DNA of 64,000 bases from Ginglymostoma cirratum (GCA_024137785.1 JAHRHZ010000055.1:10731257-10795256); one strand, 5' to 3'; positions 1,446 through 62,095 are shown, counted from the first letter of the stretch. Numbers and translations: made by a program. Notes: generated by a model from the sequence alone, not told the origin.

Positions 1446-2148
1446 ATCTACTAATGTGGTATACTGCATCCGCTGTACCCGTTGTGGCCTCCTCTACATC
1501 GGGGAAACCAAGCGGAGGCTTGGGGACCACTTTGCAGAACACTTACGCTGGGTTCACAATCAACAACTGTGCCTCCCTGTCACGAACCATTTCAACTCCC
1601 CCTCCCATTCCTCAGACGACATGTCCATCCTGGGCCTCCTGCAGTGCCACAACGATGCCACCCGAAGGCTGCAGGAACAGCAAATCATATTCAGCCTGGG
1701 AACCCTGCAGCCCAATGGCATCAATGTGGATTTCACAAGTTTCAAAATCTCCCCTCCCCCAACCGCATCCCAAAACCAGCCCAGCTCATCTCCACCTCCC
1801 TAACCTGTTTTTCCTCTCACCTCAAGCCACACCCCCATCTCCTATCTACTAACATCATCCCGCCCCCTTGACCTGTCCGTCCTCCCTGGACTGACCTATC
1901 TCCTCCCTACCCCCCTACCTACACTCACCTTTACTGGTTCCATCCCCGCCTCTTCGACTTGTCTGCCTCCTCTCCACCTATCCTCTCCTCTATCCATTCT
2001 CTATCCGCCTCCCCCTCTCTCCCTATTTATTTCAGAACCCTCTTCCCCTCCCCCATTTCTGATGAAGGGTTTAGGCCCGAAACGTCAAGTTTTCCTGCTC
2101 CTATGATGCTGCTTGACCTGCTGTGTTCATCCAGCCCCATGCTTGTTA
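1446..2148 (+). mobile_element. 5'-truncated Penelope-like element, family A: GIY-YIG endonuclease C-terminus plus pLTR
   Basis: ORF 1456-1803 VYCIRCTRCGLLYIGETKRRLGDHFAEHL...GIN has the PLE GIY-YIG signature (VY..CxxC..YIGET). It is followed by a pyrimidine-rich 3' region and a hammerhead-bearing terminus. Confidence 0.9.
2055..2090 (+). ncRNA. Minimal type-I hammerhead ribozyme motif (family A pLTR)
   Basis: CTGATGA (2059-2065), A, stem II GGGT-TTAG-GCCC, GAAAC, GTC cleavage triplet. The core is intact, with the palindromic ACGT helix III typical of PLE hammerheads. Confidence 0.8.
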
Positions 2149-3059
2149 CCAGGAAATGATGATCTCCAATAAGAGATAATCTAATCTCCACGCCTTGCCA
2201 TGCACTAGTGTTACCATCACCGAATCTCTACTGAATATCCTTGGGATTACCACTGACCAGAAATTCAACTGAACTTGCCACATAAACACAATGGCTGCAA
2301 GAGCAGGTAGGAATGCTGCAGCGATTAACTCACCTCTTGACCCCGTAGCCTAGATGGATGCAGCTCCGGCAAAACTCAAGAAGCTTGACACACTCCGGGA
2401 CAAAGCAGCCCGTTTGACTGGCACCAGGTCCACGAGCATCCACTCCCTCCACCACTGACGCTCAGTAGCAGCAGTCTGTACAATCTGCAAGATGCACTGC
2501 AGAAACTCACCAAAGATCCTGAGACAGTACCTTTCAAACCCTGAACACTTCAATGTAGAAGGGCAAGAATAGCAGATACATGGGGAACAGCACCACCTGG
2601 AAGTTCCCCTGCAAGCCACTCATGAACTTGACTTGGAAATGCACTACTATTCCTTCACAGTCACTGGGTCAAAATATTGGAATTCACTCCCTATTAGGGC
2701 ATTGTGAGTCAACCTACAGCACGTGGACATAGTAATTCCAAAGGTCAACTCACCACCACCTTCTCAGGGGCAAATACGGATGGCTAATAAATGCAGGCCA
2801 ACCAGCAATGCCCACATCCCATAAGTGAATTAAAAAATGTGCAGCAGCACCGTTGTCAACAGAGTAAGCAGCCAACAGTGCTGAAGTATTCTCATAGAAC
2901 CTAATCCAGGAACATTGAATCCCATAACTTTGACTTGTAATTTTTTTTGACATAAAGTATATTGAAACAAGCGATTAAGACATGCACATGGGACTAAAAT
3001 AGAAGATAAAATGTAAAACAAAATTAAAACATGTGGAATTTCTTGTCATGGTGGTGAAA

Positions 3060-3200
3060 TTTCATAGAATTATGGAAGGGTTACAGCACAGAAGGAAGGC
3101 ATCCATCCCATTAAACCTGTGGTAGTTTGCTGCAAAAGCAACGTAGCTAGATCCACTCCCCTGCACTTTCCCTAAGCAAACTTTTATGCTTTGACTCTTT
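3060..3200 (-). mobile_element. CR1 3' tail fragment
   Basis: catagaat...ttacagcacagaagga...ggc is the reverse complement of the CR1 3' tail seen in other copies. Confidence 0.55.
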
Positions 3201-3207
3201 TTTTGGA

Positions 3208-3286
3208 AGGTCTGCTAGGTGGTTCAATCTTTGTTGTGAGTCCTTCGCTAATATTTGTAATGGTATGTCTGGTAGGGAAACAACAG
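3208..3286 (-). mobile_element. Short diverged Penelope RT N-terminal fragment
   Basis: Its reverse complement (cctgttgtttccctaccagacataccattacaaatattagcgaaggactcacaacaaagattgaaccacctagcag) aligns to ~4543-4620 with many substitutions. Confidence 0.7.
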
Positions 3287-3289
3287 GTA

Positions 3290-3920
3290 GAGTTTAGGGA
3301 TTTTATAGTGAGAGAAACAGATGGGCATTTCTATGTCTGCAGACATGAATTCAGGATAACAATGTGTTGCCTCCATGGTGCTGGGGTTGTGGATGCCACT
3401 GTATGACTGCCACACTCACTGAAGAAAGAGAGTGAACAGCTATTTGTTACAGTCCATATTGTCATCAATAATATAGGAAGAAGGAAGAACAAAGCTCAGT
3501 TTAGAGAATTTAGGGAGTTGTCAAATAGAACATGAAAGGTAGCAAGAAAATAACATCTAGAAATACTCAGTGGCTCTGCAGCATGTTGAATGCATACACA
3601 TCTGCTAAATTCCAGCATTTTGTGTTTTTATTTAAGTTTTCCAGCATTCTCAGTATTTTGGTCAATGATTGTTCCCTCCAGATTGCTCTGGATGCCATGT
3701 CCTAGCAAGTTTAGAACTGGGAGGATACAGCGTATGAGCGTGTAATTAGAGGGAAAGGCTTCAGATTCCTGGAACATTGGGACAGGTTGCTGAGGAGGTC
3801 AGACCTGTAACCTGGATGTGTTACCCACAACAAGACAGCACCAATGCCTGTGCCAGACAGTATGCTGATGGGGAGGGTGTATACCAACTTGACAGAGAGT
3901 TAGGAACCAGAATATAATGT
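3290..3920 (+). mobile_element. Degenerate CR1 ORF1 (SGNH esterase-type) fragment, duplicated inside the inverted repeat
   Basis: gggattttatagtgagagaaacagatgggcatttc...tgtgttgcctccatggtgctggggtt is a decayed GDSIVR.TD..FC...VCCLPGA motif. A degenerate pLTR hairpin is inserted at ~3545-3665. Confidence 0.6.
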
Positions 3921-3989
3921 TTTGGCAAAGATCTGTAGCTCAGGTTGTGAATGAGGTTGTTGACTTGCTCGCCGAGCTGGCTTGTTTTT

Positions 3990-4044
3990 GTTCAGATGTT
4001 TCATCACCGTGCTAGATGACATCATCAGTAGAGCCTCCGATGAA
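3990..4044 (-). ncRNA. Hammerhead ribozyme motif, inverted copy of the family D pLTR
   Basis: Reverse complement reads CTGATGA-tgtcatc-tagcac-ggtgat-GAAAC-ATC. Confidence 0.6.
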
Positions 4045-4602
4045 GCGATGTTATTCTACACCACTTAGAATTTATACTGTCCAGTCCGTTATGGTGAGTA
4101 TGTCATTTCCGGTTTTGATCTGTATGGGTTTGTATATTGGTTCCATGCTATCCGTTTGTTGATTGAAGTATGGGTGGAGAACCATGCCTCTAGGAATTCC
4201 CGTGTGTGTCTATGTTTGGCTTGGGCTACTATGGTTACCTTGTCCCAGTTAAATTGATGACCTTCATTGTCTGAATGTACTGATATTAAGGAGAGTTCAT
4301 CCTGCCATTTTGCTGCCAGCTGACGTTAATGTATTCTGATGGCTAGTTTCCTTCCTGTCTGTCCTGTTTGTGGCAGTCGTTGCAAGGTATTTAGTAAACC
4401 ACATTTGTTCTGAATGTTGTGGGAATGGGGTCTTTAATCCTTGTAATTGGATTCTAAACCAGATCCCGCTAAACCAGAAGACAGAAACACCCCTCAGTTC
4501 TATGGGCTGCCTAAAGTACATAAACCAGACATCCCTCTCAGACCTATTGTTTCCCTACCAGACACACCATCACACAAATTGGCCAAGGACCTACAATAGA
4601 GA

Positions 4603-5295
4603 TTGAAACACCTAGTAGAGGGATCACCCCATTCTATCCACTCAACCCAAAATTTCCTTGATACCCTCAAGAACATAAAAATCAGCGACAACAAGACTAT
4701 GGTATCCTTTGACACCACAGCCTTATTCAACTCAGTCGACATCCTACTAGCCAAAGAAATAGTGGCCACATTACTAGAGGAAACAGCGACACAAACCAGT
4801 AGCTCCATCAGCAAGGACAACATACTTAAAATACTAGACCTCTGCCTCACCACACACTTCACCTTTAATGGTCCGATGTACAAGCAGATCAACAGTACAC
4901 CAATGGGGTCACCCATCTCAGGAGTCATCTCAGAAGTAGTCATGCAAAGACTAGAACACACCATTCTCCGCATTCAACCTAAACTGTGGATCCGGTACAT
5001 AGATGACACATTTGTCATTATTAAACGCAACAAATTAGAAACCTACCACCTCATCAACGGCGTATTCACAGGGATTAAATTCACAAGGGAAGAAAAAAAC
5101 AACAATCAACTTCCGTTTCTGGATGTTAAAGTCGAGCAATTAACAAACGGGGAGTTCCAAACCTCAGTGTACAGAAAAGCAATACACACCAGTCAAATCC
5201 TCAATTTCCACAACAACTACCCCAACGACAACAAACAAAGCTGCATTAGGACCGTATTTAAATGGGCCAGGATACACTGCAACACTCCAGAATGA
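4603..5295 (+). pseudogene. PLE reverse transcriptase core (remnant ORF, 230 aa)
   Basis: RT motifs as above. An in-frame stop upstream and frameshifts downstream show the polyprotein is broken. Confidence 0.85.
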
Positions 5296-5611
5296 TGCAG
5301 GGAAGAGGAAGAACACTTGTACAAGATCCTCGCTTTAAAAGAGTTATACCTGCAACTTCATCCACCGATGCCTACAAAACAGACAACAGGAGGACACAGT
5401 ATGACCTAACACACTGGCCACACCGTCCGACATCTCGAGATATCAGAACAGATGACAAGATTCCAAAGACCACTAGGAATCATGGTGGCCCAACAGCCCA
5501 CAGCCATTCTACCACAAGCACTTACAAGGATGAAAGATCCCATTCCCATAACATGCAGAATGAACGTGGTTTACAAAATACCATGCAACGACTGCCATGA
5601 ACATTACATCA

Positions 5612-6688
5612 GACAGACAGGAAGGAAACTAGCCATCAGAATACATTAACGTCAGCTGGCAGCAAAATGGCAGGATGAACTCTCCGTAATATCAGTACAT
5701 TCAGACAATGAAGGCCATCAATTTAACTGGGACAAGGTAACCATAGTAGCCCAAGCCAAACATAGACACACACGGGAATTCCTAGAGGCATGGTTCTCCA
5801 CCCATACTTCAATCAACAAACGGATAGCATGGAACCAATATACAAACCCATACAGATCAAAACCGGAAATGACATACTCACCATAACGGACTGGACAGTA
5901 TAAATTCTAAGTGGTGTAGAATAACATCGCTTCATCGGAGGCTCTACTGATGATGTCATCTAGCACGGTGACGAAACATCTGAACAAAAACAAGCCAGCT
6001 CAGCGAGCAAGTCAACAACCTCATCCACAACCTGAGCTACAGATCTTTGCCAAAACATTATACTCTGGTTCCTAACTCTCTGTCAAGTTGGTATACACCC
6101 TCCCCATCAGCATACTGTCTGGCACAGGCATTGGTGCTGTCTTGTTGTGGGTAACACATCCAGGTTACAGGTCTGACCTCCTCAGCAACCTGTCCCAATG
6201 TTCCAGGAATCTGAAGCCTTTCCCTCTAATTACACGCTCATACGCTGTATCCTCCCAGTTCTAAACTTGCTAGGACATGGCATCCAGAGCAATCTGGAGG
6301 GGACAATCATTGACCAAAATACTGAGAATGCTGGAAAACTTAAATAAAAACACAAAATGCTGGAATTTAGCAGATGTGTATGCATTCAACATGCTGCAGA
6401 GCCACTGAGTATTTCTAGATGTTATTTTCTTGCTACCTTTCATGTTCTATTTGACAACTCCCTAAATTCTCTAAACTGAGCTTTGTTCTTCCTTCTTCCT
6501 ATATTATTGATGACAATATGGACTGTAACAAATAGCTGTTTACTCTCTTTCTTCAGTGAGTGTGGCAGTCATACAGTGGCATCCACAACCCCAGCACCAT
6601 GGAGGCAACACATTGTTATCCTGAATTCATGTCTGCAGACATAGAAATGCCCATCTGTTTCCCTCACTATAAAATCCCTAAACTCTAC
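5612..6688 (+). repeat. Right arm of the 1077-bp inverted repeat: PLE 3' end plus ~640 bp of flank
   Basis: See left arm. The CR1-ORF1-like flank appears to continue past 6688 on this side only. Confidence 0.95.
5931..5985 (+). ncRNA. Hammerhead ribozyme motif in the family D pLTR
   Basis: CTGATGA 5947-5953, stem II gtcatc/ggtgac, GAAAC 5973-5977, triplet ATC. Helix I is short and irregular. Confidence 0.65.
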
Positions 6689-6917
6689 TGTGCTCCCCAT
6701 CCTCTTGCCTTAGATTTGGCTCTGGCTGCACTCCCTTGATTAACCATTATGTTTACTCATATTCAGAGGTGAATACTGATTTGTGAATGAGCACTCCTTC
6801 ACCCCCCGCCTGACCCTCCTTTGTGGTCTGAAAGTCACCTGTCCACTCTCTCCTGCAACCCATTAGGCTGTGGGGTGAAGACCCCTAGAAATGGGGTGTC
6901 ATGTCACATTGCAACTC

Positions 6918-8354: not shown

Positions 8355-8455
8355 AAGGATAAGTCACCAGACCCACAACGTTAACTCTGATTTTTTTCTT
8401 CACAGATACTGCCAGACCTGCTGAGCTTTTCCAACAACTTCTGTTTTTATATCTG
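8355..8455 (+). mobile_element. PLE pLTR fragment, family B (degenerate hammerhead half)
   Basis: gtcaccagacccacaacgttaactctg...cacagatactgccagacctgctgagc matches the arms of 55533-55767. Confidence 0.7.
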
Positions 8456-10050: not shown

Positions 10051-10204
10051 AGTTTAGGGCCACCAGAATGACAGCGTCCTAGCTCTGGGTGAATGTGGAT
10101 GAACAGAGAACACTGGCTCAATGCCATTTTGAACTTGCGGAAGTATTTCTTATCATTTCCTCCCAAGTGCCCCAATTACACACAAAGAACAATTTCTTAT
10201 GAAT

Positions 10205-11815
10205 ACAGATATATGCTGGAGAAACTCAGCAGGTCTGACACCACATGTGGAGAAGGGAAAAACCAGAGGTAACATTTTGGGTCATGTGAGCCTTCATCAG
10301 AATGAAAACAGTTGAGAAATGGCGAAACTTATACTGATATCATCGTTTCCCAGCTGCCTTCAGTTCTGACAAAGGGTCCATAAGATGATAAAATATAGGA
10401 GCAGAATTAAGCCATACAGTCCATCAGGTCTGCTCTGACAATCAATCATGGCTGATCTGTTTCTCAACTCTATTCTCCTTCCTTCTCCCTGTAAACCTTG
10501 ATCCCCTTACCAAAAAAGAACCTATCCACTTCTGTCTTAAATGCTCTCGATGACTTGGCCTTCATGGCCTTCTGTGGTAATGAGTTCTGCAAAAACACCA
10601 CCCTCTGGCTTAAGAAATTCCTGATCTCAGTTCTAAAAGGTCTTCCCTTCACTTTGAAGCTGTGCCCACGGGTCCTAGTCTCTCCTACTCATGGAAACAT
10701 GTTCTCCACATTCACTCTGTCCAGGCCTCTCAGTATTCTGTAAGTTCCAATCAGATCCCCCACATCCTTCTAAACTCCATGCAGTACAGATCCAAAATTC
10801 TCAACTGCACCTCTTATGACAAGCCCTTCAGCCCCAGGGTCATTCTTGTAAACCTCCTCTGGACCCCGTCCAACACATCATTCCTTAGATATGGGTCACA
10901 AAAGTGCTCACAATACTCCAAATGCAGTCTTACCAGAACCTTATACAGCCTGCCTTAGCAGCACATCTCTGCTCTTACATTCCAGCCCTCTTGAAATGAA
11001 TGCTAGCATTATCTTTGACTTGCTGTTCATCAAATGAAGCTACATGTTAACCTTAAGAGAATCCTGACCTGACTCCAAGTCGCTTTATGCTTCAGATTTC
11101 CGAATCCTTTCCCCATTTAGAAAATAGTCTACACTTCTATTCTTCCTACCAAAGTGCATAACCTCATACCGTCCGACATTATATTGCATCTGCTGCTTCT
11201 TTGCTCACTTGCCTAGCATGTCCAAGTCCTTCTGCAGCCTCCCCACTTCCTCAACACAATCCATCCCTCACCTAGCTTGGTGTCATCCGCAAACGTCCAG
11301 ATTGGTAATGTATTACGTGAATAGTTGTGGTCCCAAAACTAACCCCTGCAGAACTCCACTAGTCATTGGCTGCCATCCTGAAAGAAAAATACTTCATCCC
11401 TAACCAGTCCTCCATCCGGACCAGCACCTTACCCCTCACACCATGGGCTCTTATTCAGCAGCCTCCTGTACAGCACCTTGTCAAACGTCTTTTGGACATC
11501 CGAATAGATCATGCCTACTGGGTCTCCTTCATCTAACTTTCTCATTACGTCCTCAAAGAATTCTAACAGATTTGTCAAGTACAACCTCCCCTTGATGAGG
11601 ATGTGCTGACTCTGCCCTACTTAACAATGTACTTCCGAGTACTCCACAATCTCATCCTTCGTAATACATTCCAAAATCTTACCAGCGACTGGTCACTAGA
11701 CTCAAAACATTAACTATTTTTTGCCCCGCCACAGATGCTGCCAGGCCAGCTGAGCTTCTCCGGCACTTCCTGTTTTTGTTTCAGATTCCCAGCAACCACA
11801 TTTTTCCATTTTTTT
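10205..11815. mobile_element. Family B fold-back pLTR element (10205-10378 plus 11691-11815) split by a CR1 insertion
   Basis: The left arm gctggagaaactcagcaggtctg...ccttcatcagaa and the right arm ttctgacaaagggtc / ggtcactagactcaaaacattaact...cagatgctgccagg are mutually inverted. Confidence 0.7.
10379..11690 (-). mobile_element. CR1 LINE, RT to 3' end
   Basis: Tail cataagat..aaaatataggagcagaatta. Minus ORF 10470-10652 KGRPFRTEIRNFLSQRVV. tgtcatccgcaaac is FADD on the minus strand. Confidence 0.85.
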
Positions 11816-14731: not shown

Positions 14732-15335
14732 TAACGAAAAGCAGAATACTGCAGATGCTGAAAATCTGAAATACAAATAAGAAGGGTGGCACAGTGCCTC
14801 AATGGTTAGCACTGCTGCCTCATAGTGTCAAGGACCCAGGTTCAATTCCACCCTCGGGTGACTGTCTATGTGGACTTTGCAGATTCTCCGTGTGTCTGCG
14901 TGGGTTTTCTGCCACAGTTCAAAGACGTGCAGGTTAAGTGGATTGTCCATAGTGTCCAGGTATGTGAAGGTTAGTTGGATTATCCAAGCAATATGCAGGG
15001 TTACAGGGATAGGGTAAGGAGGTGGGTCTGGGTGGGATGCTCTTTGGAAGGTCAGTGTAGACTCAATGGACTGAACAGCCTGCTTCCATGCTATAGGGAT
15101 TCTATGCTGGGGTACCTCAACTGGTCTGGCAGCATCTGTGGAAAGAAATCAGTTAACATTTCGGGTCCAGTGACACATCTTCAGGTTGAAGAAGACACAT
15201 ATTAGACTTGAAATGCTAACTCAGTTCTTCTCTCTGCAGATGCTGCCAGACCAGTTGAGTTTCCCTAACGATTTCTGTTTTGGTTTTTGTTTCTGATTTC
15301 CAGCGTCTGCAGTTCTTTTGGATTTTTTGTTTATT
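14732..15335. mobile_element. Family B fold-back pLTR element with an HE1-like SINE in its left arm
   Basis: Arms ctgcagatgctgaaaatctg...ctggtctggcagcatctg and cagatgctgccagaccag...ttccagcgtctgcag are inverted about cttcaggttgaag (~15184). Confidence 0.7.
14784..15106 (+). mobile_element. HE1-like V-SINE
   Basis: gggtggcacagtgcctcaatggttagcactgctgcctca (A box), ggttcaattcc (B box), tail tagggattctatg. Confidence 0.85.
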
Positions 15336-23131: not shown

Positions 23132-23248
23132 GTGCAAAATTCTGCAGATGCTGGAAATCTGAAACAAAAACAGAAAATGCTGAAAATACTCAGCTGATCT
23201 GGCAGCATCCGTGGAGAAGGAAACAGAGTTAACATTTCAGTTTGAACG
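23132..23248 (-). mobile_element. PLE pLTR fragment, family B
   Basis: ctgcagatgctggaaatctgaaacaaaaacagaaaatgctg...tggcagcatccgtggag...agagttaacatttc. Confidence 0.75.
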
Positions 23249-26345: not shown

Positions 26346-26369
26346 CAGGAAAACGGAGTTAAAGCCACA

Positions 26370-26577
26370 AGGTGTAGAGCTGGATGAACACAGCAGGCCA
26401 AGCAGCATCAGAGGAGCAGAAAAGCTGACGTTTCGAGTCTGGACCCTTCTTCTGAAGAAGGGTCCAGACCCGAAATGTCAGCTTTTCTGTTCCTCTGATG
26501 CTGCCTGGCTTGCTGTATTCATCCAGCTGTACGCCTTGTTATCTCAGATTCTCCAGCATCGGCAGTTCCTACTATCT
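26370..26577. mobile_element. Family A fold-back pLTR/hammerhead mini-element with a 16-bp TSD
   Basis: TSD cggagttaaagccaca at 26354-26369 and 26578-26593. Near-perfect palindrome centred on 26453. Plus-strand core CTGAAGA-A-GGGTC-CA-GACCC-GAAAT-GTC. Confidence 0.92.
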
Positions 26578-26599
26578 CGGAGTTAAAGCCACAGTCCGA

Positions 26600-33760: not shown

Positions 33761-34001
33761 GGTTTCCTACCTGTGAGTATACTCTGATGTGATTTGCTGT
33801 TCCTTTGCTTGATGATGTCTCTGCGGCTGGTTGCCGAGAGGTCTCCAAGACCTGTCATCAACTTCACACTGGCATCAGGAAAGTGACAATCCATGCCACA
33901 AGAGATCACTAGATCTTTTGGGACAGCATTTTTTGAGGTCAGCCACAAGTACTGTCTGCCCACAAATTCAGGGCAAAATTTCTCAAACCCACAGCTGAAT
34001 T

Positions 34002-35152: not shown

Positions 35153-35299
35153 NNNNNNNNNNNNNNNNNNNNNNNNNNNNNNNNNNNNNNNNNNNNNNNN
35201 NNNNNNNNNNNNNNNNNNNNNNNNNNNNNNNNNNNNNNNNNNNNNNNNNNNNNNNNNNNNNNNNNNNNNNNNNNNNNNNNNNNNNNNNNNNNNNNNNNN
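35153..35299. other. Assembly gap (147 N)
   Basis: Run of N. Confidence 1.
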
Positions 35300-36855: not shown

Positions 36856-37030
36856 GGATAGTAGGAACTGCAGATGCTGGAGAATCCGAGGTAACAAGGT
36901 GTAGAGTTGGATGAACACAGCAGGCCAAGCAGCATCAGAGGAGCAGGAAAGCTTGACGTTTCGGGCCTAGTCCCTTCATCAGAAATGGGGGAGGGCTTGG
37001 CCTGCTGTGTTCATCCAGCTCTACACCTCT
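36856..37030 (-). mobile_element. Family A pLTR with a hammerhead core plus a short inverted pLTR piece; 13-bp TSD
   Basis: TSD ataaagaaggcag at 36843-36855 and 37031-37043. Minus strand CTGATGA-A-GGGACTAGGCCC-GAAAC-GTC. Inverted piece gcttggcctgctgtgttcatccagctctacacct. Confidence 0.9.
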
Positions 37031-37210: not shown

Positions 37211-37405
37211 AACAAAAACCGAAAGAACTGTGGATGGTGTGAATCAGGAACAAAGACAAGGCTGTTTGGCCTGCTGTGTTCATCCAGCTCTACACCTTGT
37301 TATAACAAAGACAAAGTTGCTGGAAAATCTCAGCAGGTCTGGCAGCATCTGTGAAGAAAAAAAGATTTAATGTTTCGGGTCCGGTGACCCTTCCTCAGAA
37401 CTGAA
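37211..37405 (-). mobile_element. Family B pLTR with hammerhead, containing a 44-bp family A insert
   Basis: Minus strand CTGAGGA-A-GGGTC-ACCG-GACCC-GAAAC-ATT at ~37366-37398. Insert 37260-37303 is flanked by aacaaagacaa at 37249-37259 and 37304-37314. Confidence 0.85.
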
Positions 37406-37559
37406 CACTTGGTGCTTAACACTATTTTACAAGACTGTGAATAGATACCATATATATGAGCATTGTTAATGCTGTTCAGTCACACCTTAAAAACCATTTC
37501 AGTTTCAAACTTTGGATTATCAATATTTATGGGGTAGAATGGCATTAAGAATTGACATG

Positions 37560-42183: not shown

Positions 42184-42380
42184 GCCATGATACGGAGGTG
42201 CCAGAGTTGGACTGGGGCGGACCAAGTCAAAAATCACATGACACCAGGTTATAGTCCAACAGGTTTACTTGAAGACATAAGCTTTCGGACTCTCACTCCT
42301 TCTTTGGGTGTCAAACTTGAAGAAGGAGCAAGACTCCGAAAACTTGCGTCTTCAAATAAACCTGTTGGACAATAACCTGA
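42184..42380. mobile_element. Family C fold-back pLTR/hammerhead mini-element with TSD
   Basis: TSD gtcaatggag at 42174-42183 and 42382-42391. Arms caggttatagtccaacaggttta...gctttcgga..ctccttc and gaaggagcaagactccgaaaac...taaacctgttggacaataacctg are inverted. Cores are degenerate. Confidence 0.82.
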
Positions 42381-43069: not shown

Positions 43070-43438
43070 AAGAATAAAAGTTATTGCGGGAAGATCATTT
43101 GGCCCACTCATACTCACACCCTACCTTATCCCTGCAACCCCCATGGCTAATCCATCTAACCTACACATCCCCAGGCATTATGGGCAATTTAGCATGGCCA
43201 ATCCACCTAACCTGCACATCTTTGGGCTGTGGGATGAAAATAGAGCATGTGAAGGAAACCTACACAGGCAGAATGAGCCAGCTGAGGCTGGAATTGAACC
43301 CAGGTCCCTGGTCCTGTAGGCCCGAAATGTCAAGCTTTCCTGCTCCTATGATGCTGCTTGGCCTGCTGTGTTCATCCAGCTCCACATCTTGTTATCCCTG
43401 GTCCTGTAAGGTAGCAGTGCTAACCACTATGCCACCCC
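43070..43438 (-). mobile_element. HE1-like V-SINE with a nested 76-bp family A pLTR piece
   Basis: SINE head gcagtgctaaccactatgccaccc. Insert 43319-43394 is flanked by the 14-bp TSD tccctggtcctgta (43305-43318, 43395-43408). Confidence 0.85.
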
Positions 43439-46299: not shown

Positions 46300-49200
46300 T
46301 TAGGATGATTAAAAATGCAAAAATGCAAGCCTAAGGGCTTTGCATCTTAATACACAAAGCATTCAGAATAAGGTAGATGAACCAATGGTAAATGGATATG
46401 ATCTTGTAGCCATGATAGAGATAAGGTTACAAGGAAACCAGGACTGGGAATTTAACATTAGGGATATGCAACCTTTCAGAAAGACGGGAAGGAAGGAAAG
46501 GGTGGTGGGGTTGTACTGTTAATAACAGATGAAATGAGGATGGTTATGAGAGATGATCTGGGCTTAGATGACGTACAGTCCGGGTGGAGGTACATAACAG
46601 CAAGTGAAAGAAGGCATTGATAGGAGTTGTGTAAAGACTCAAACAGTAGCCATACTGAAGGAAAGGATATAAATCTACAAATAATATCAGCACGCAAATT
46701 GAATACAGAGCAATAGTCATTTGTGACTTTAATCTTCATGGTTGTTGGGTCGATCGAGTTGAGAAAGGTTGCTACGATGACAAGTTCATGAAAAGCATTT
46801 GAGATAGTTTCCTAGAACAATACTTCATGGAGCTGACCGGGGACCAGGCTATCCTGGATCTAGTAATATATAATAAGGCACGTTTAATAAATGACCTCAA
46901 AGTAAAAGATCACGTAGGAAGGAGTGATCAGTACATGATAGAATTTAATATTCAGTCTGAGTGCGAGAAACTTAGGTCAAACTTTAATAAAGGGAATTAC
47001 AATGAAATGAGGATAGAGTTAGTTCATATGGACTGGGCAGACAGATTAGCAGGAAAGGCAGTAAGTAAGCAGTAGTAGACATTTAAGGAGGCAATTCATG
47101 ACTCTCAGCAAAAAATGTATTCAAGTGAGGAGGAAAGATTCTATAAGAAGGATAACCGTGGAGGTTAAGGAGAATATAAAGTTGAAGGAAAAATCATATA
47201 GGAGGACAAAAGTCAGTGATAGCCCTGAAGACTGGGATAATTTCAGAATCCAGCAAAGGAGGATGAAAAGGATAATAAAAAGTAAGAAAATAAATTACAA
47301 GGACAAACGATCAAAGAATATACAAACTGACAATAAGAGGTTCCTTAAATATATAAAAAGGAAAAGTGAAGTTGAAGTGAATGCAGTCCCCTTAGAAAAT
47401 GAATATGGGAAGATTGTTATGGGGAACAAGGAAATGACAGAGGAGTTAAATAAATATTTTGCATCAGTGGAAAATACTTTGAACATCCCATTAATACTAA
47501 AGAAAACCAAGGAGGATTTAAGTACCATCACTCCCACTAAAGAAGTAGTATTAAACAAACCAACAGAACTAAAGGCAGATAAATACCCTCGTCCTGATGG
47601 CTTGTATCCTCAGATCCTAAAATAAATAGCTACAGAGATAGTGGCTGCAATGGTCGTAATTTTCCAAATATCCTTGGATTCTGGAGAGGTCCTGGAGGAT
47701 TAGAAAACCTAATGTGACACCCCTATTTAAAAAAAGAGGTAACTACAGATTAGCCCAATATTATTTTATTGGAAAAATGTTGGAATCAATTATTAAGGAA
47801 GTAATAGCACCTCATATGGACAATCATAGTCTAATCAAGCAGAGTCAGCATGGCTTCGTGAAAGGGAAACTTTGTCTAATTTTTTAACATTTTTCAACAA
47901 GTCACAACCAGAGTGGATAGAGGGGAAGCAGTAAACATGTTGTGTTTGTCCTTCCAAAAGGCACTCGACAAGGTACCTCACAAAAAGGTTAAATCATAAG
48001 ATAGGAGCCAACAGTGTTGGAGGTACCACCTTGGCATAGATAGAGAACTGGCTAATGGGCAGGAGTGGTGATGGCATCTGGAAATTGGCAGTTGTTGGTA
48101 TTAAGTAATGAGTCTGTTCCAGTGATGCTGTCATCATGGGAGATGCGGGTGTAGAGTGCCGAAAAACACACAATTTGTAGACACAGTCAGTCAATGGGGC
48201 ATTCCTGATTTGGAAATAAACCAGTATCACTCCAAGTTAAAACACAGCTTCTAAACAAGGCCTCACACCTAAAATGCATTGTCTGACCTGAGATGTCACC
48301 TCCGGTATACACTGATAAAACCTTTACTTATCTCAGGGCAGTGACCTGAAAGAAATTCTTGGATTTGCATTTTAATCAATTGAACTTGCATCTCCTTTCT
48401 AACTGATCAAAGATTTAACAGGAGTGAGTCAACCAGCCATTTTAGGTTTATTCAATACATTTGCATCAGTCGTATGATCTGTAGATCTTTTACTTATAAA
48501 TTATGAGTCTTGATGCCTCTTTCACTACACCTGAGGAAGGAGCAATGCTTAGAAAGCCAGTGTTTTCAAATAAACCTGTTGGACTATAACGTAGTGTCAT
48601 GTATTTTTGACTTTAATGGGCAGGAAACAGTGAGTAAGGATAAAAGGTTCCTTTTTGGGTAGGTAACCCATGATAAGCAGGGTTCTAAAGGAATCAGAGC
48701 TGAGACTGCAACTGTTTACAATATATATTAATGACTTGAAGGAAGGAAGCAAATGTCCTGTAACCACATTTGCAGATGACACAAAAATAGGTGGAAAGGC
48801 TACTTGCAAGGGGCATACAAACAGTATACAGAGAGATATAGATAGGGTAAGATAGTGGACAAAAAGTTGGCACATGAAATATAATTTGGGAAAATGTGCA
48901 GTTGTTCATTTTGGAAGGGAGCACAAATGTCCAGGCCATTACTTAAGAGGAGAAAAACTGCAAAAAGCTGCCACACAAAGGGAATTGGGGATACTTGTTG
49001 TTCATGCCGTATGAAAACTGACACAGCAGGTAATTAGGAAGGCTAATGGACTATTGGCCCTTTTCCAAGGGGGTTGAAACAGAACTGACACTCAGTTGCA
49101 ACTGTTCTCCTCGGAGAAGAGAAGGTCTGGTAGAAGTATTCAAAATCATGAGAATTCTGGTCAGGGTAAGTAGGAAGAAAATGTTCCCACTCATGAAAAG

Positions 49201-49861: not shown

Positions 49862-50100
49862 ATGGAGACACCCTGCAGGTCTGTCAGTATCTGTGGAGAT
49901 TGATACAGAGTTAAAGTTGAGTCCAAAGACTTTTCTTCAGAACTGAAGTTTAGAACAGAACAGTTCTGTAAAAGAGTCATATTGGACTTCAAACATTAAC
50001 TCTGCTTGTCTCACCACAGATGCTGCCAGACCTGCTGAGCTGCTCCAGCATTACCTGTGCCTGTTTCAGATTTTCCATATCTGATGTATTTTGCTTTTAT
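49862..50100. mobile_element. Old family B fold-back pLTR element
   Basis: gcaggtctgtcagtatctgtggag...gagttaa...cttcagaactg and cagttctgtaaaagagtc...ttaactctg...cacagatgctgccagacctgc are inverted arms. Confidence 0.7.
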
Positions 50101-50417: not shown

Positions 50418-50537
50418 TCCCCCCCACCCCCGCCCCCCCCCCCCCCCGACCCCGTGCCTCCCCACCTCCGCCCCCCCCACCCCCCGACCCCGTGCCTCCC
50501 CACCGCCGCCTCCCCCACCCACCGACCCCGTGCCTCC
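50418..50537 (+). repeat. C-rich minisatellite, ~37-39 bp unit, running into a gap
   Basis: ccgaccccgtgcctcc recurs at ~50446, ~50483 and ~50522, separated by C-runs. Confidence 0.8.
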
Positions 50538-50937
50538 NNNNNNNNNNNNNNNNNNNNNNNNNNNNNNNNNNNNNNNNNNNNNNNNNNNNNNNNNNNNNNN
50601 NNNNNNNNNNNNNNNNNNNNNNNNNNNNNNNNNNNNNNNNNNNNNNNNNNNNNNNNNNNNNNNNNNNNNNNNNNNNNNNNNNNNNNNNNNNNNNNNNNNN
50701 NNNNNNNNNNNNNNNNNNNNNNNNNNNNNNNNNNNNNNNNNNNNNNNNNNNNNNNNNNNNNNNNNNNNNNNNNNNNNNNNNNNNNNNNNNNNNNNNNNNN
50801 NNNNNNNNNNNNNNNNNNNNNNNNNNNNNNNNNNNNNNNNNNNNNNNNNNNNNNNNNNNNNNNNNNNNNNNNNNNNNNNNNNNNNNNNNNNNNNNNNNNN
50901 NNNNNNNNNNNNNNNNNNNNNNNNNNNNNNNNNNNNN
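50538..50937. other. Assembly gap (400 N)
   Basis: Run of N. Confidence 1.
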
Positions 50938-51027
50938 GAAGAAGGGTCCAGACCCAAAACAACAGCTTTCCTGCTCCTCTGATGCTGCTTGGCCTGCTGT
51001 GTTCATCCAGCTCTACGCCTTGTTATA
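50938..51027 (+). mobile_element. Family A pLTR 3' part, starting inside the hammerhead core at the gap edge
   Basis: gaagaagggtccagacccaaaacaacagctttcctgctcctctgatgctgcttggcctgctgtgttcatccagctctacgccttgttat. Confidence 0.85.
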
Positions 51028-51034
51028 TCATAAT

Positions 51035-52690: not shown

Positions 52691-53530
52691 ATAAGTAAAT
52701 TATTTCAGATCTGACAGTTTATGACCTCGCTTCTTCCCTGACATATACATAGGTATTGGTAATGACTAAAATAAAATGAAATGTCAATATTTCTTCTTTA
52801 GTTACAGAATGACTCATTACAGACCTTCCAATGAGATAAACAAATTGCAATTAGTAAACTAAACTTTACCAAGTCCAAATATTTTGGCACAATTTTTCTT
52901 GTTAAACATTTATTCTTAAAGGCCAGACGATAGTCTGTACATTTCAGATTAATGGATTTACTGGTGAACATGAAGGGCTATTGGAGTCAGTGATTCAAAT
53001 GTGTTCTAATGTTTTAGTGAAGATTTTCTAACACACGAGCAGTAAATGCACATGGTCTGTTCAACCACAAGTAACTGTTTGTTTGATCTGCTAGAATGCA
53101 TTTCAGAGAGAGATGGTGCTGTTCTCTTGAAGGCTAAGAGTGTTTATCTCAGAGAGCAGCTGAACTAGAGAGAACAGGACAATCTAGGATCCAGTGTTCA
53201 ATCTGTAGAGAGTGAGCTGAGCTCAGCCAAAAAGGCACGAGGGAATTTACAGTCGGTATAACTGCCCTGTGGTTACAGAAGGCAGGGGTGAGTCCAGCAC
53301 TTCTGCTCCGATCACAGTCACCCCAGCTGGATGTCAAAGATAGACAGATTCAGGCTGAGCTTTGATGTCCCCTGTGATCAGTAGCTTGTCAGATAATTCC
53401 ACAGTTGGCATGCTGATAGCTTGCAAGTACCAAAGAAGGACTCATTGAATCATTCCACATTAAGGAATCAATGCCTTCTGGGGGGGTGATGGAAAATTGA
53501 AATCTGACAAAAGAAAAATTAAGTCACTTG

Positions 53531-54050
53531 GAGATAGGAAGAACTGCAGACACTGGACTCAGAGTCAATACAGCATGGAGCTGGAGGAACACAGCAGGCC
53601 AAGCAGCATCAGAGGAGCAGGAAAGTCGACATTTCAGACCTGGACCCTTCATCAGGACTGGGGAGGGGAAAGGAAGCAGAGAAATAAATAGAGGGAGGAG
53701 GGGTGGGGCTGGGGGAAGGTAGGTGGGATGGCGATAGGTGGATGCAGGTAGGGGGTAGTGGGGATTGGTCAGTGGGAAGGGTAGAGTGGATAGGTGGGGG
53801 AGAAGATAGGCAAGTTGTGTCAGGTCAAGGAGGCAGGGATGAGAGCGAGGGTTGGACATGGAATGAGGCCAGGAGGTGGGGAGATACTGAAACTGGTGAA
53901 TTTTATGTTTATGCCATCCAGCTGTAGGCTCCCGAGGCGGAATATGAGGTGTTGTTCCTCCAGCTTGCATGTGGCATCATTGTGGCACTGGAGGAGGCCC
54001 AGGATGGACATGTCACCAAGGGAGTGGGAGGGGGAGTTAAAATGGTCAGA
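53531..54050 (-). mobile_element. Family A Penelope fragment (GIY-YIG C-terminus + pLTR, degenerate hammerhead)
   Basis: Minus ORF 53820-54011 MSILGLLQCHNDATCKLEEQHLIFRLGSLQLDGIN is homologous to 1456-1803. Minus-strand CTGATGA-A-GGGTCCAGGTCT-GAAAT-GTC at ~53625-53657. Confidence 0.9.
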
Positions 54051-54589
54051 GGGCTAGGCAGTATCTATACATTCAGAAATGAAGTCAACATTTCGGGTCA
54101 ATTACCTTTTTGATAATAACAGTTATCAATCTAACACATTGGACTGAATATTGTCATCATGGGCAGGGGACCTAACAACAGATCAGGAAGCCAGGGATGA
54201 CACAGCCTCGACCTTTGCAGGATTCCATAGCACATCTTTGCAGGTCAAGCAACTAATTAGTTGCCATCTAGGGTGCTATCCCTTTAATAGAGGGCTACAC
54301 CCACCCAACAGCCTGAGTAGCACCATCTGGAGAAATGGCCAATGCTGGGAATACGTGAGGAATAAGACAAGAAAGAAACACACTGCATGCTGGGCTTTCT
54401 ACTAAGTGGAGTGGCGGAAAATAGGAGTGGTGTTGCTGCAGTGGCCATTATTCCCTCTGGGAGACCCTCTGTGGCGATTGTATACTCAAATGAGCTCCAC
54501 CAGAGCTCACAGGGAGCCTGCCAAGGTTAACCGTATGGCAGTGAGTCCACTAAATGCTGATAAGATGCCATGGGAGAAACTCTTAATGA

Positions 54590-55487: not shown

Positions 55488-55532
55488 CATTTTAAAATTA
55501 CTTATTTATTGCCTGACCAAATTATGCACGAA

Positions 55533-55767
55533 CAAAAACAGAAGCTGCTGGTAAAGCTCAGCAGGTCTGACAGCATCTGTGAAGAAAAAAATCAGAGTTA
55601 ATGTTTCAGGTCTGGTGACCCTTCCTCAGAACTGTTCTGAGGAAGGGTCACAGGACCCGCAATGTTAACTCTGATTTTCTCTTCACAGATACTGCCAGAC
55701 CCACTGAGCTTTACCAGCAACTTCTGTCTTTGTTCCTGATGTACAGCATCCACAGTTCTTTTGGTTT
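55533..55767. mobile_element. Family B fold-back double-hammerhead mini-element with a 14-bp TSD
   Basis: TSD aaattatgca(c/t)gaa at 55519-55532 and 55768-55781. Palindrome centred on 55633. CTGAGGA-A-GGGTC-N4-GACCY on both strands. Confidence 0.92.
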
Positions 55768-56534
55768 AAATTATGCATGAATGACTTTAAGACTCTAGCC
55801 CTGTGAAGAAGGGGTTTATTCTCAACAAATTGGTTTCGGAGGGAGACTAATTATTAAACAATGCTTCCTGAGTTCCACATGTTTCATTTGGAGACTTGGC
55901 CATTTGAGAGCCATCTGTTTTTTCTCCCCATGTGAGATGCAGTTTTAAAAACATTAGATCATTGAAGTTTTTTTTTCAAGCTCCCTAATTTCAGAAAATT
56001 TCTAGAAGAACTCTGCAATTCAGTGCTTACAGCTATGAAAAGGCAACTAATAAGCAGTTAGCTAGATTGCTGATTGCAGACAAAGTTTGATGTGGAAAAT
56101 GTCTGAGAGAAAGAGAATAGAATTGTAGGATTGTGGCATTTTGTTTAAACGAATCAATCATACGCTCTTCCTCAAGATGGCCAGACTGATAACACAGCAA
56201 TCAAAACCTTCATGTCCAAACCACATTCAGTGATACCCTAGGCCTAAATCTCTAGTTTAAAAGATGACAATGCAACAAATGTGTGAGACAGTTCAGTTGG
56301 ATAATTTTTGAACTGCTCCCTCACCATTCTGTATTTTACAATATCTCATTTCAATGTAACCTTGAACTTTTTGCATGTGTCACATGCCAGTGTATGGTAT
56401 GTTAAGTCAATGATAATATTGATCAAAAGAAGTATCTTATTTCGTATTGAAACAAGCGTATGTACTGCAAATGCTAGGAAACTCATATATGAACAGAAAT
56501 TACTGGGAATATTCGGGACTTTCTGAAATGTATA

Positions 56535-56685
56535 TGGAGAAAGAAAGAGAACTAACATTTCAGGCCATTGAGCTTTTGTCAGAAACGTCCCCAGACTTGC
56601 CAATTTGAAGCATTACCTCTGTTTCTCACTCTATATATGCTACCAGACCCGGTGAGCATTCTGGCACTTTTTTGTTTCAATTAAC
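56535..56685. mobile_element. Very degenerate family B fold-back remnant
   Basis: gagaactaacatttcagg...ttgtcagaa followed by ttacctctgtttctc...atgctaccagacccggtgagcatt. Confidence 0.5.
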
Positions 56686-57444: not shown

Positions 57445-57541
57445 GGTAGTTTTTAACCAACCTGCTCAGAGACGTTATTTAACACCTCAAGAGCAGGTGG
57501 GACTTGAATCCAGGACCACTACCACCGTACCACAAGAGCCC
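57445..57541 (-). mobile_element. tRNA-derived SINE head
   Basis: Reverse complement gggctcttgtggtacggtggtagtgg...ggattcaagtcccacc (A and B boxes). Confidence 0.55.
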
Positions 57542-58700: not shown

Positions 58701-60149
58701 TATTTCTTTGCTGTCTGTCATAATCTGGGCCATCTCACGATTCATTTCAGTGTTGGTATAAAGCGTCAGTCACACAATACAAAATTATTTTCCCAAACCT
58801 TGCGTTATGTCAGAATAGTAGAACAAATTAAACATTGCGCAACTCTCCCATTCACCAGGTTTTGTGAAGAACATGGGATGTTTGATGTTGGCTTATTGCT
58901 ATTTGATGGCAAATGATGAATTGCGTTTCCATCTTATTCCTTGCATTATATGGGGACACTGTCCACATGACGTTTTGGATTCCCTGCCTCAAATTTTGCG
59001 TGGCTTTCAGTGAATATCCCCATAATGAAGATGTATCACTTTCTTCCCTAGAAGAAAGAAGCCAAAGGAAAACTCCAAAACAAAGAGGTGAAAGGACTCT
59101 CAAAGCACATCGAAAGCAGATTATAAGACTGTGTACCAATCTAACATCCCTTGTTCATTAACCTATCACTTTGCAAAGATACTTCCTTCCTGTGTACTCA
59201 TTGCCAGGTGAAGCGTAATCTATCAAGAGGTCTGTGTCAGCACTGTGTAGCTGGCGATGGCATCCTGCTGGTTGCCAACCTATTCTGCTACTCTTGAAAT
59301 GGCAGACTGCCAAGTGAATGGGAACAGCGAAAGTGCTGAACTATACCTGCTTCCAAAATACCATTATAATGATTGCAGGTTCTGTAAATAGGATCTTGAC
59401 TCCAAAATCAAATCTAACATTTCTCTAGTCCGCTAAGATGAAGATGGCTACAGGGAATTGTTTTAGCATCCTTTGCTTTGCCATTCTACTTCACACACAT
59501 TGTATATCAAAGCTATAATGCATCCTACAGGAAATCATTATACTTCTGCATCGCACCATTGAGGAAACCTACCATTTCACGTCTGGCAAATGTCTTGCAA
59601 CATACATAGTTAGTTTCACCCATTCGTTCCATCAAAAGTATCTTCACTGACAATGAAATTTAGCTTTCTTTCCATTGCCAATTGCTATTTGGAACTATGA
59701 ATCATATAGTAACCAGTCCTGTTGCATACTCAGACCAACCATGAATGATGGAACATTTCCTTTTGTTGCTTTCTATCGGGTATCAAAGTAAAATAAGTTA
59801 GTGCAATTCCAATTAATTATACTGGGTCAGCAGTACCAAACTACCTGTCATTTGGCAAAAGAATGAAGTAGTAGGAGTTGCTGCACTGAGAGAGCAGTTA
59901 AAGTCCATAATTATGGCAGAACAGAAAAAAAATTATTCCAACTATTAATACAACAAAGCAAATGTGTCTTTTTTACAATTAAATGTATGCTTATTTTCAA
60001 TCCAAATACTATATACTTAAAGTAAGACTTAGCCACAAAATTTGAAGCAGTTCTGTTGTCAAATATAAATAGAACTACTCCTGTGGAAGTACTGAGCTCC
60101 TCTGTTTAACCTCGTCACCTGAATGCACTTTTGCTACATCTTTGAATGT

Positions 60150-60910
60150 GACCCCAAATAACATTTGCACCACACAAATGCCAATCAATGACCATCTCTA
60201 GTCAAAGACAATCTAACCACTCCCCTTGACTTTCAATAGTGTTATCATCACTGACTACCCCACTATCAACTTCCTTGGGGGTTACCATTCATGAGAAACT
60301 CAACTGAACTCACCACCTAAACACAGTGGCGACAAGAGCAGGTCAGAGGCTAGGAATGCTGTGACAAGAAACTCACCTCCTGACTCCCCAAAGCCTGTCC
60401 ATTATCCACAAGGCACAAGTTAGGAGTGTGATGGAATACTCTCCACTTGCCTGGTCTGGTGCAGCTCCAACAACACTCAAGAAGCTTGACACCATCCAGG
60501 ACAAAGCAGCCTGCTTGATTGGCATCACTCAATACTTTGTATCAGCAATGTGTCCTGTGTAAAAGATGTACTGCAGAAATTCAACAAAGATCCTCAGACA
60601 GCACCTTCCAAACCCACAAACACTTCCATCTAGAACGGCAAGGGCATCAGATATATAGAAACACCACCAACTGCAAGTTCCCCTCCAAACCACTGACTAT
60701 GCTACGTTGGGAATATATTGGTGTTCCTTCACTGCTGTGAGGTCAAAATCCCGTAATTCCCTCCCTAAGGGCATTGTGGGTCTACCTACGGCACATGGAC
60801 TGAAGTGGTTCAAGAAGGCAGCTCACCAACATCTTCTCAAGTGCAACTAGGAATGGGCGTAAATTTTGGACCGATTCGTGATACCCATGTCCCACGAATG
60901 AATAAAAAAA
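60150..60910 (+). mobile_element. L2-type LINE 3' fragment
   Basis: aaggcacaagttaggagtgtgatggaatactctccacttgcctgg...aagaagcttgacaccatccagg; ends cccacgaatgaataaaaaaa. Confidence 0.85.
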
Positions 60911-61099
60911 GGAGGTAAAATGGTAGGGATAAAGATCACCTCAGTATCCTAGCTTGATCTCATCTTCCCTCCATTCACCTGTTGGTCAACCCTTCTTGTT
61001 ACTTTCAGGTTTGTCCAGCCTAATGGATTCCTCTGCAGCCTTGCATCTTTCACCTTCCATAAACCTGACTTCAGTCAGACTTATGCTGCTTGTATATGA

Positions 61100-61530
61100 A
61101 CATACACTTAATCCTGTCGCATATCTGTCTCATGCTTGCTGGTTTACATTTGCTGCTGTTCTTCAGTTTAAAAAAAATCATTGTTTCACAACTCAGCATG
61201 CCTCCCTTCTCTGTAGGCTCAGCCAGCGGTACAGCCTACTGAGGTCTCTGTATTGCTGCAATTCTTGCCTCCAGTATATTCCTGACTTTAATCACTCCAC
61301 TATTGGTCACTGTGTCGTCTGTTGCCTGATTCCCAAGTTCTAGAATTCCCTCTTTTCTGCTTTCTACTCCTCTAAGATGCTTCTTCAAATCTTGCTGTTT
61401 GACTATGCTTTTAGTCGTCTGTCAAAATATCTCTTTATTAGCTCTTTGTCACCTTTTGTTTGATAGCACACCTATGGAGTACCTTAAGAGATTTCACAAT
61501 GTTAAAGGCTCTGCATAAGTGGAAGCTGCT
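61100..61530 (+). mobile_element. Old L2-type 3' fragment (second family)
   Basis: cctgactttaatcactccactattgg...tagaattccctc...aatgttaaaggctctgcataagtggaag resembles an L2 terminus. Confidence 0.5.
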
Positions 61531-62008
61531 CTCAGGTAAATGGCAAGTTTCCATTTGCAACATAATATGAAAATGTAGGAGCGAGAAGAAAATCAGTTTA
61601 TTTCTGTTTCAACAGAAGACATAATTAAGCAAAATACTCAGAAATTCCCAATAAAATCTTGTACAGTTGATTTGATGCATTTCTATCTTCTGTAGTGAAG
61701 ATTTACCCCGATAAGGTACTGAAAACGTTAGGTGATTGTGAAAGAAATATGTTGTATTGCAAATGAGGTTCTTGAGATTGGAATGCCTCCACATCAGACT
61801 TTAATTCATTAGCATAAATTTTAATCTACATAAAATTAGAAAACAGGACCAAAATCAGAACTAAATTCAATATCTCTGTGACCCCAATTAAACAAATATA
61901 GGAAATATTTTTGTGCAAGTTCGTGTTCAAGTTGGTCTACTGTGTCTCCTTCAAAAACAAGCAGGCCAAGCATCCAAAAAGTTAGCACTCAACTCATATA
62001 CACCTTTA

Positions 62009-62095
62009 TAACAAGCATGGGGCTGGATGAACACAGCAGGTCAAGCAGCATCATAGGAGCAGGAAAACTTGACGTTTCGGGCCTAAACCCTTCAT
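62009..62095 (-). mobile_element. 87-bp family A pLTR fragment, identical to 2062-2148
   Basis: Exact reverse complement of 2062-2148; truncated inside the CTGATGA box. Confidence 0.92.

Follow-up and report, generated by a model that had tools for sequence, protein, structure and literature searches.

Short hammerhead-bearing ends of Penelope-like elements, single or folded back as hairpins, in a 64-kb window of the Ginglymostoma cirratum genome

We analyzed a stretch of 64,000 nucleotides from the shark Ginglymostoma cirratum (GCA_024137785.1, JAHRHZ010000055.1:10731257-10795256; the window, with positions counted from its first letter), in which an original prediction had noticed many short ends of Penelope-like elements (PLEs) carrying hammerhead ribozyme motifs. 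Results showed that the window contains 19 solid PLE 3' end insertions and 3 weak fragments across four families (A to D), in line with the more than 15 terminal copies from four families claimed before. Eight of the 18 short insertions are head-to-head fold-backs, belonging to families A, B and C, while the remaining ten are single arms, one of them cut by an assembly gap; describing the hairpin as the usual product was therefore an overstatement. Hairpins and stubs are probably independent, dead-on-arrival insertions made by autonomous PLEs, and, taken as a class, they seem to be PLE debris of an ordinary kind. What we see is known biology, namely short products of PLE insertion, complete with their customary inverted copy, tail, target-site duplication (TSD) and minimal hammerhead. 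A curious feature is left, as most stubs stop at the edge of the ribozyme, which merits a genome-wide count.

Fold-backs and single arms

The window is repeat-rich eukaryotic DNA (GC 41%) with N gaps at 35153-35299 and 50538-50937, and PLE spans occupy about 10% of it. The solid insertions of families A (8), B (8) and C (2) were found by nhmmer with family profiles derived from copies of the window itself, and D, represented by one long element, by blastn. The same search on the reversed window gave 0 matches for A and B and 2 weak ones for C (E 0.094 and 0.71). The 3 weak fragments belong to family B (best E 3e-4, 0.014 and 0.093), one of them occurring twice via a recent duplication. The insertions are listed below, with C3 of the hammerhead core as reference point and with RT and EN standing for reverse transcriptase and endonuclease.

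1444..2150, plus strand: family A, 5'-truncated 3' end of a putative Neptune-type PLE; GIY-YIG frame 1402-1803, then 3' untranslated region; minimal hammerhead intact (C3 at 2059), 3' end untailed
3899..6076, plus strand: family D, long PLE of putative Penelope/Poseidon type; RT-EN frame 4450-5886, broken; one hammerhead at 5947 and another at 4028, the latter in the inverted 5' arm (3899-4449)
8356..8451, plus strand: family B single arm, untailed; 5' start within the hammerhead
10202..11805, both strands: family B fold-back that turns about 33 nt upstream of C3; the left arm spans 10202-10333, the right arm has two parts, 10334-10380 and 11691-11805, with a 1.3-kb LINE-like insert between them; no significant TSD
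14742..15330, both strands: family B fold-back, centre 15185; both arms tailed, the left one interrupted by a 324-bp SINE-like repeat (14784-15107); no significant TSD
23135..23240, minus strand: family B single arm, tailed; begins in stem II
26370..26577, both strands: family A fold-back, centre 26453 in the hammerhead core; right arm tailed, left arm untailed; 16-bp TSD (26354-26369 / 26578-26593)
36856..37030, both strands: fold-back of family A, asymmetric; the minus-strand arm has a tail and an intact hammerhead (C3 36982), its inverted partner is an untailed piece of 35 bp; TSD of 13 bp
37215..37409, minus strand: family B single arm, tailed; hammerhead C3 37398; 12-bp TSD
37260..37303, plus strand: family A, 44-bp stub lacking a hammerhead, inserted within the B copy 37215..37409; 11-bp TSD
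42184..42377, both strands: family C fold-back centred at about 42312, with a tail on the left arm and a short right arm; TSD of 14 bp with 1 mismatch
43317..43396, plus strand: family A single arm starting in stem II, within a SINE-like repeat; 14-bp TSD
48526..48613, plus strand: family C single arm; hammerhead C3 48531; 5' boundary uncertain
49862..50098, both strands: family B fold-back, centre about 49953; right arm tailed, left arm short; no significant TSD
50938..51029, plus strand: family A single arm without a tail; an N gap has taken its 5' end, so that it could be half a fold-back
53531..54046, minus strand: family A, 516-bp 3' end, tailed; partial endonuclease frame; hammerhead C3 53655
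55533..55767, both strands: family B fold-back, centre 55633; right arm tailed, left arm untailed; 14-bp TSD with 1 mismatch
56462..56680, both strands: old family B fold-back, centre about 56580, by profile matches
62006..62095, minus strand: family A single arm, untailed; begins 3 nt inside the hammerhead core

SINE-like (short interspersed element, about 300 bp) and LINE-like (long interspersed element) are presumptive labels of ours for interspersed repeats, pieces of which occur repeatedly in the window; Pfam gave no confirmation of the 1.3-kb insert as a LINE.

The six fold-backs named in the original prediction (10205, 14732, 26370, 42184, 49862 and 55533) all proved real, and those at 36857 and 56460 come in addition; element D also carries an inverted arm. 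Two extents had to be revised, as the fold-back at 10205 is larger than stated (it ends near 11805) and that at 14732 includes the SINE-like repeat in its left arm. The old fold-back at 56460 is too decayed to fold beyond chance, 22 of 200 shuffles folding at least equally well, and we call it a putative fold-back on its profile matches, both arms being matched by a B profile made without them (E 1.8e-7 and 7.8e-10). The fold-back at 26370 is predicted to fold at -149 kcal/mol (z -19.7), which upholds as a prediction the suggestion that a transcript would form a long double-stranded RNA (dsRNA) hairpin. The best Rfam matches of the hairpins are two microRNA (miRNA) models, both below threshold (mir-3914 with E 1.5e-6 and mir-2131 with E 0.005; 42267-42357 and 26398-26508). 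[quoted passage not shown]

TSDs of 11-16 bp, with scores of 9-16, were detected at 7 of the 18 PLE insertions tested (the copy at 50938 was left out, its 5' end lying in the N gap). In a null of 600 random pairs, a score of at least 9 occurred in 6 and none exceeded 10, a null that the seven insertions beat; seven insertions with TSDs had also been claimed previously. Half of the eight fold-backs have a detectable TSD; among the six originally named, three have one and the other three show none. The TSDs reveal no AT-rich target preference, being 59% AT, equal to the window.

MITEs are short and lack an open reading frame (ORF), have equal terminal inverted repeats and a fixed short TSD, and come in uniform copies. 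The hairpins, about 200 bp long, ORF-less and built of inverted repeats within TSDs, look similar, and we considered that they could be DNA-transposon MITEs resembling PLE ends by chance. Their outer ends are unequal owing to the one-sided tail, their TSDs are long and variable, their centres are unique (junctions distinct in all eight), 10 of the 18 short copies are single arms and the sequence joins a PLE endonuclease frame in two copies. MITE identity was rejected on these points and a chance resemblance is very improbable, and the earlier proposal of retrotransposition rather than DNA transposition is sustained.

We also looked at the junctions themselves. The distance from C3 to C3 is -2 in the symmetric family A hairpin, 8, 2, 26, 66 and about -5 in family B, and 10 in family C, while the eighth, asymmetric fold-back joins -14 to +52. 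Thus, the junctions are distinct in 8/8 hairpins, including 5/5 of family B, and no pair shares both ends. At the other side, the 3' ends of family A are bimodal, lying at +84 to +92 from C3 in 7 of 10 arms and at +124 to +126 in 3, two classes about 35 nt apart, and both A fold-backs have one arm of each class. Across families, one tailed (long) and one untailed (short) arm are combined in 7 of the 8 fold-backs.

Arm-to-arm identity is 49-91%, and the partner arm is the nearest sequence for just 2 of the 14 A and B arms, which led us to reject homogenised or selected hairpins. Secondary insertions are present in two hairpins, each within one arm. The data also bear on the possibility that fold-back chimeras arose by assembly or amplification, a concern raised by the draft quality of the sequence, its two N gaps and an inverted duplication of 1077 bp with 9 mismatches; considering that the arms of the short hairpins differ by 9-51%, that four hairpins have TSDs and that two bear the secondary insertions in one arm, such an artefact is hardly credible as their source. 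Tandem Repeats Finder reported no tandem units, and no same-family tandem hammerheads occur in the window, the sole pair on the same strand closer than 900 bp being 416 bp apart and belonging to two families with separate TSDs.

Hammerhead motifs and parent elements

A minimal type-I hammerhead descriptor gave 12 matches, 8 of them with a perfect core, and a perfect core appeared in none of 10 dinucleotide shuffles. A pattern lacking the extra base after A9 had found just 2 motifs and was superseded by this descriptor. No Rfam hammerhead family matched the window at E up to 10, and the 5 Rfam matches obtained correspond to miRNA, 23S-methyl and tRNA models, every one below the gathering score. 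The motifs share the CUGANGA / GAAA core, the extra base after A9, G10.1-C11.1 and a palindromic helix III (ACGT in families A and B, AGCT in C), and stem II opens with a GC pair in 10 and a GU pair in 3 of 14 motifs. Four families can indeed be told apart, as the stem II sequences had suggested, with the corrections that A and B are homologous and that B has two stem II variants.

Two-sided changes were present at 9 of 11 stem pairs, with a covariation of 0.49 against 0.22 in shuffles (0/500 as high) and 0.02-0.12 in slid controls. The set consisted of the 14 best-preserved motifs, hand-picked among 25 located, and these are related sequences, so that the shuffle count is not a probability and kinship inflates such counts. 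Judged by motif and covariation, the minimal type-I hammerhead announced by the original prediction is real. The covariation reflects selection on the parent elements and not on the copies of the window, where 5 of 18 A, B and D arms retain the stem III palindrome ACGT unaltered and 11 have its CpG-decay forms. A perfect core, an exact palindrome and at least 3 stem I pairs are united only in motifs 2059 and 36982, neither of which is in a symmetric hairpin.

Folding predictions gave a stem II pairing probability of 0.000 on 4/4 strands of three symmetric hairpins, while in isolated arms it was 0.17-0.72 for three and 0.006 for a fourth. Hence, the hairpin is predicted to pair the ribozyme with its own antisense and to mask it. 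Minimal type-I hammerheads usually self-cleave as dimers. In cofolded dimers the catalytic dimer fold was absent in 3/3 copies, the minimum-energy structures pairing stem II and the core flanks, an energy-based result that is uninformative either way on dimer cleavage. As a separate observation, a tract of pyrimidines lies just 5' of the hammerheads at 53655 (minus strand) and 10366 (plus strand), its final CAG standing two bases ahead of the core. It resembles a splice acceptor, and an intron of D. virilis Penelope ends at helix I (PMC4209133).

That these sequences are PLE termini, as claimed, is supported by family A, two copies of which (707 bp and 516 bp) run on from a GIY-YIG endonuclease frame. 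The frame at 1402-1803 is open (133 aa) and matches Pfam GIY-YIG with E 2.9e-4 and 21.5 bits, under the curated cut-off of 22.6. Its best relatives are proteins of whale shark (90%) and zebra shark (83%), those of skates being more distant, and in the two best relatives RT, a Cys-rich linker and EN are all part of one ORF. We observed the linker in the 90%-identical relative; the window copy is truncated just downstream of it. As a Cys-rich, Zn-finger-like linker between RT and EN marks Neptune/Nematis (PMC8557442), family A would be a Neptune-type PLE, Neptune being inferred over Nematis from the vertebrate host. The A profile matches B arms (E 1.5e-9 to 2e-3), and by homology the B parent would be Neptune-type as well. 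No ORF-bearing copy of families B or C was found within the window, and family C is tentatively assigned to PLEs by its hammerhead, tail, TSD and fold-back.

Element D was filed as putative Penelope/Poseidon because it has an RT (Pfam RVT_1, E 1.9e-7), lacks the linker motif in its translations and is only 26% identical to Neptune-type RT; its EN pieces, without a GIY-YIG Pfam match, were identified by eye. Element D also overlaps the 1077-bp inverted duplication mentioned above, which joins 3287-4363 to 5612-6688 with about 610 bp of non-PLE flank and ends abruptly, giving way to 13 mismatches in 86 bp (4364-4449); in addition, 3211-3288 is an inverted RT piece (83%). The duplication may stem from recent conversion or repair of an inverted arm that is itself old, or else from mis-assembly.

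Origin of the insertions

From what the window shows (the anatomy and TSDs of the insertions, their 3' ends in two classes, the uniqueness of each junction, the decay and the predicted masking), we propose the following mechanism. The source PLEs would be of Neptune type for A and, by homology, B, and of Poseidon type for D. Their RT-GIY-YIG protein would make a staggered cut, giving the TSD of 11-16 bp, and reverse transcription would begin within the pseudo-long terminal repeat (pLTR), at either of two sites about 35 nt apart, giving tailed or untailed 3' ends. The cDNA would mostly be 80-150 nt long and usually end at the 5' edge of an uncleaved hammerhead. It would then be joined alone, as a single arm, or receive a second, opposite copy, as a head-to-head hairpin in which one arm is tailed and the other is not; we suggest that this second arm is made by snap-back at short palindromes or is primed from the opposite DNA strand. 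Afterwards the copies would decay neutrally, with the ribozyme unable to fold when paired with its antisense.

Several of these steps are taken from in vitro work on the anole Poseidon, in which RT starts at two internal sites bounding a 30-40 bp tail, both DNA strands are cut and extended, and the main template is uncleaved RNA (PMC11167929). The bimodal 3' ends and the one-tailed hairpins agree with the tail of 30-40 bp and the pair of RT start sites described there (PMC11167929), and with an inverted pLTR of which one is tailed in another study (PMC3846280).

We also asked where the insertions end on the 5' side, in 17 events (the 19 insertions minus one gap-truncated and one uncertain, with boundaries assigned by hand). 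Eleven of the 17 5' ends or turning points are located between -14 and +14 of C3, and none in the cleavage-site region at +25 to +33. Cleavage-defined 5' ends were consequently rejected, and the lack of ends at the cleavage site is consistent with uncleaved RNA as template. The turning point is within 13 nt of C3 in 6 of the 7 symmetric hairpins, 10202..11805 being outside the cluster, and other stubs start at +14, +20 and +49. A scan statistic gave p of 0.015 and 0.0009 for truncation lengths that are exponential with means of 60 and 100 nt, 0.003 for a mixture, and 0 of 20000 when the means are longer or the lengths log-uniform; it replaced an earlier test, in which the interval had been picked post hoc (p up to 4e-5), and gives weaker values. 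We regard this clustering at the edge of the ribozyme as suggestive, not settled.

Our best guess is that the cDNAs end there by run-off, at the 5' end of an RNA promoted by the pLTR, in which PLEs have an internal promoter (PMC2377424; PMC6765202), because initiation within the upstream pLTR would yield exactly such short cDNAs. An alternative is that RT stalls, either at the fold of the ribozyme or at the pyrimidine tract next to it, and a further candidate is fold-back at the short palindromes at the core start, which are visible at several fold-back centres. That the hammerhead marks a defined stop or the 5' end of an RNA, with no re-mobilisation involved, is possible and tentatively put forward, if somewhat on the doubtful side. 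The bolder version, in which the 5' edge of the uncleaved hammerhead is a programmed RT stop-and-turn site and ORF-less hairpins of about 200 bp a defined product, some of them re-mobilised in trans as a MITE-like class seeding dsRNA loci against the parent, is quite unlikely.

The original prediction had left two options, recurrent abortive insertion, which fits our results, and a self-propagating, retrozyme-like class, for which the window holds no evidence. In the latter, a few master hairpins would be transcribed and copied in trans by PLE proteins, keeping fixed junctions. Hairpins are frequent, occur in three families and turn near a common landmark; moreover, they keep the pLTR and could be mobilised in trans (PMC3846280), and non-autonomous pLTR-derived elements exist (bioRxiv 10.64898/2026.07.22.740005; PMC8557442). 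Against such masters, the family B junctions all differ and both ends are never shared, the hairpin at 36857 lacks the middle of one arm and is not derivable from a symmetric master by 5' truncation, and the short arm ends coincide with those of single-arm copies. Considering also that the ribozyme would be masked and that there are no tandem copies to make circles, propagation of this kind is improbable, even if a single window is a small sample that leaves room for self-propagating subfamilies.

Another route would start from a complete element with an inverted pLTR (pLTR-pLTR-ORF-pLTR) that loses its ORF by recombination between direct pLTRs, so that the hairpin keeps its TSD and the single arms are solo pLTRs. 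A precursor with a one-arm tail and a TSD of 9-10 bp, solo pLTRs and the suggestion of recombination or deletion are all in print (PMC3846280), and this route also predicts a tailed/untailed hairpin with TSD. Yet none of the 19 insertions has a direct pLTR at its 5' side, the stubs starting at +14, +20 and +49 and the 516- and 707-bp copies point to plain 5' truncation at work, and repeats of about 100-130 bp would be poor substrates for recombination. We therefore regard this route as unlikely, although less so than self-propagation.

Several observations weigh against independent abortive insertion. ORF loss by recombination of direct pLTRs would leave an identical structure. The hairpins are each of a differing age class or subfamily, so that eight unique junctions, the outcome expected against a self-propagating family, are weak evidence by themselves against one master per subfamily. 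No TSD is detectable at 4 of 8 fold-backs and at 11 of the 18 insertions tested, and the fold-back at 14732 is tailed on both arms. Under the steepest truncation null (exponential, mean 40 nt), p for the clustering is just 0.057. Finally, variants private to both arms of a hairpin are not enriched (1/118 sites in A, p 0.27; 3/490 in B, p 0.22), which leaves snap-back and two-template models unseparated.

PLE integration is poorly understood, in particular the formation of the inverted pLTR and the role of the hammerhead. If ends pile up genome-wide before the hammerhead and not at the cleavage site, shark genomes would be a very large fossil record, able to test snap-back versus two-strand priming and to map the 5' end of the RNA used as template. 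A stop or RNA 5' end at the hammerhead, if true, would thus offer a genome-scale handle on how inverted pLTRs are formed.

Neighboring sequence and comparison with known systems

A search for host genes with 82 stop-free frames (80 of 118, plus 2) gave just two weak matches in Pfam. A candidate host exon on the minus strand (33771-33951, AG...GT, one open frame) had no Pfam, PDB or Atlas match; if it is real, many hairpins would be intronic. A weak tRNA-like Rfam match (E 3.1) at 25029-25083 heads a repeat inserted in LINE-like sequence, which we take to be probably a tRNA-derived SINE. A C-rich 38-bp tandem repeat (50419-50537) abuts the assembly gap that has a family A copy on its other side. 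Over 87 nt, two copies of family A (62009-62095 and 2062-2148) show no difference although 60 kb lie between them, against 80-93% identity among other A copies; they may reflect a subfamily that is very young, conversion or mis-assembly. PLEs are also nested in PLEs, as the A stub 37260-37303 is near the boundary between short end and tail of its host B copy, and the 516-bp A copy is flanked by a weak B fragment and B-tail-like sequence (53490-54106). Such nesting may indicate an endonuclease preference for pLTRs.

Among known systems, rearranged inverted-repeat Penelope copies of transgenic Drosophila can form dsRNA, and small interfering RNAs map to the inverted regions (PMC3681739); compared with these, the hairpins described here are known from sequence alone. 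Retrozymes are tandem (PMC7229834) and pLTR-derived, with one chondrichthyan among the reported hosts (bioRxiv 10.64898/2026.07.22.740005). The hairpins resemble non-LTR retrozymes in being ORF-less and pLTR-related, in having a type-I hammerhead and in occurring alongside PLEs, dispersed monomers having also been described. However, a retrozyme is made of units of about 150-450 bp repeated directly in tandem, each with its own hammerhead, and is expressed as linear and circular RNA, whereas here we find inverted pairs and single stubs; retrozyme identity was rejected, as the window has no tandem units.

The motifs agree closely with the metazoan PLE hammerheads of Cervera and De la Pena (2014, PMC4209133) in the core, the base after A9, G10.1-C11.1, the loop-less palindromic helix III and the covariation, with a helix II of 3-6 bp here. 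In that study, minimal hammerheads left by truncated PLEs were found dispersed in their thousands, and ours are likewise mostly dispersed single motifs of this kind; sharks have 0 occurrences in its main text. Its opposite-strand pairs in Schistosoma are about 100-700 bp apart, whereas those of the window are 0-66 nt apart and often overlap or lack stem I where they join.

PLEs typically have tails and copies that are inverted and 5'-truncated (PMC8557442, PMC8969392), and head-to-head pLTRs, palindromic junctions, a tail on one arm, TSDs of 8-10 bp, solo pLTRs and self-priming have been reported together (PMC3846280). Head-to-head pLTRs, solo pLTRs and opposite-strand hammerhead pairs are thus already in print; ORF-less hairpins turning at the hammerhead, or 5' ends clustered there, were undescribed in the literature searched, which comprised few subscription journals. 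In conclusion, our insertions have in common with those of endonuclease-bearing (EN+) PLEs the strong 5' truncation, the adjacent inverted 5' copy, the palindrome at the junction, the one-sided tail of 30-40 bp and the variable TSDs (PMC8557442, PMC3846280, PMC8969392). Unlike the published EN+ cases consulted, which bear an ORF or are unpaired solo pLTRs, those of the window often consist of two pLTR stubs turning at the hammerhead.

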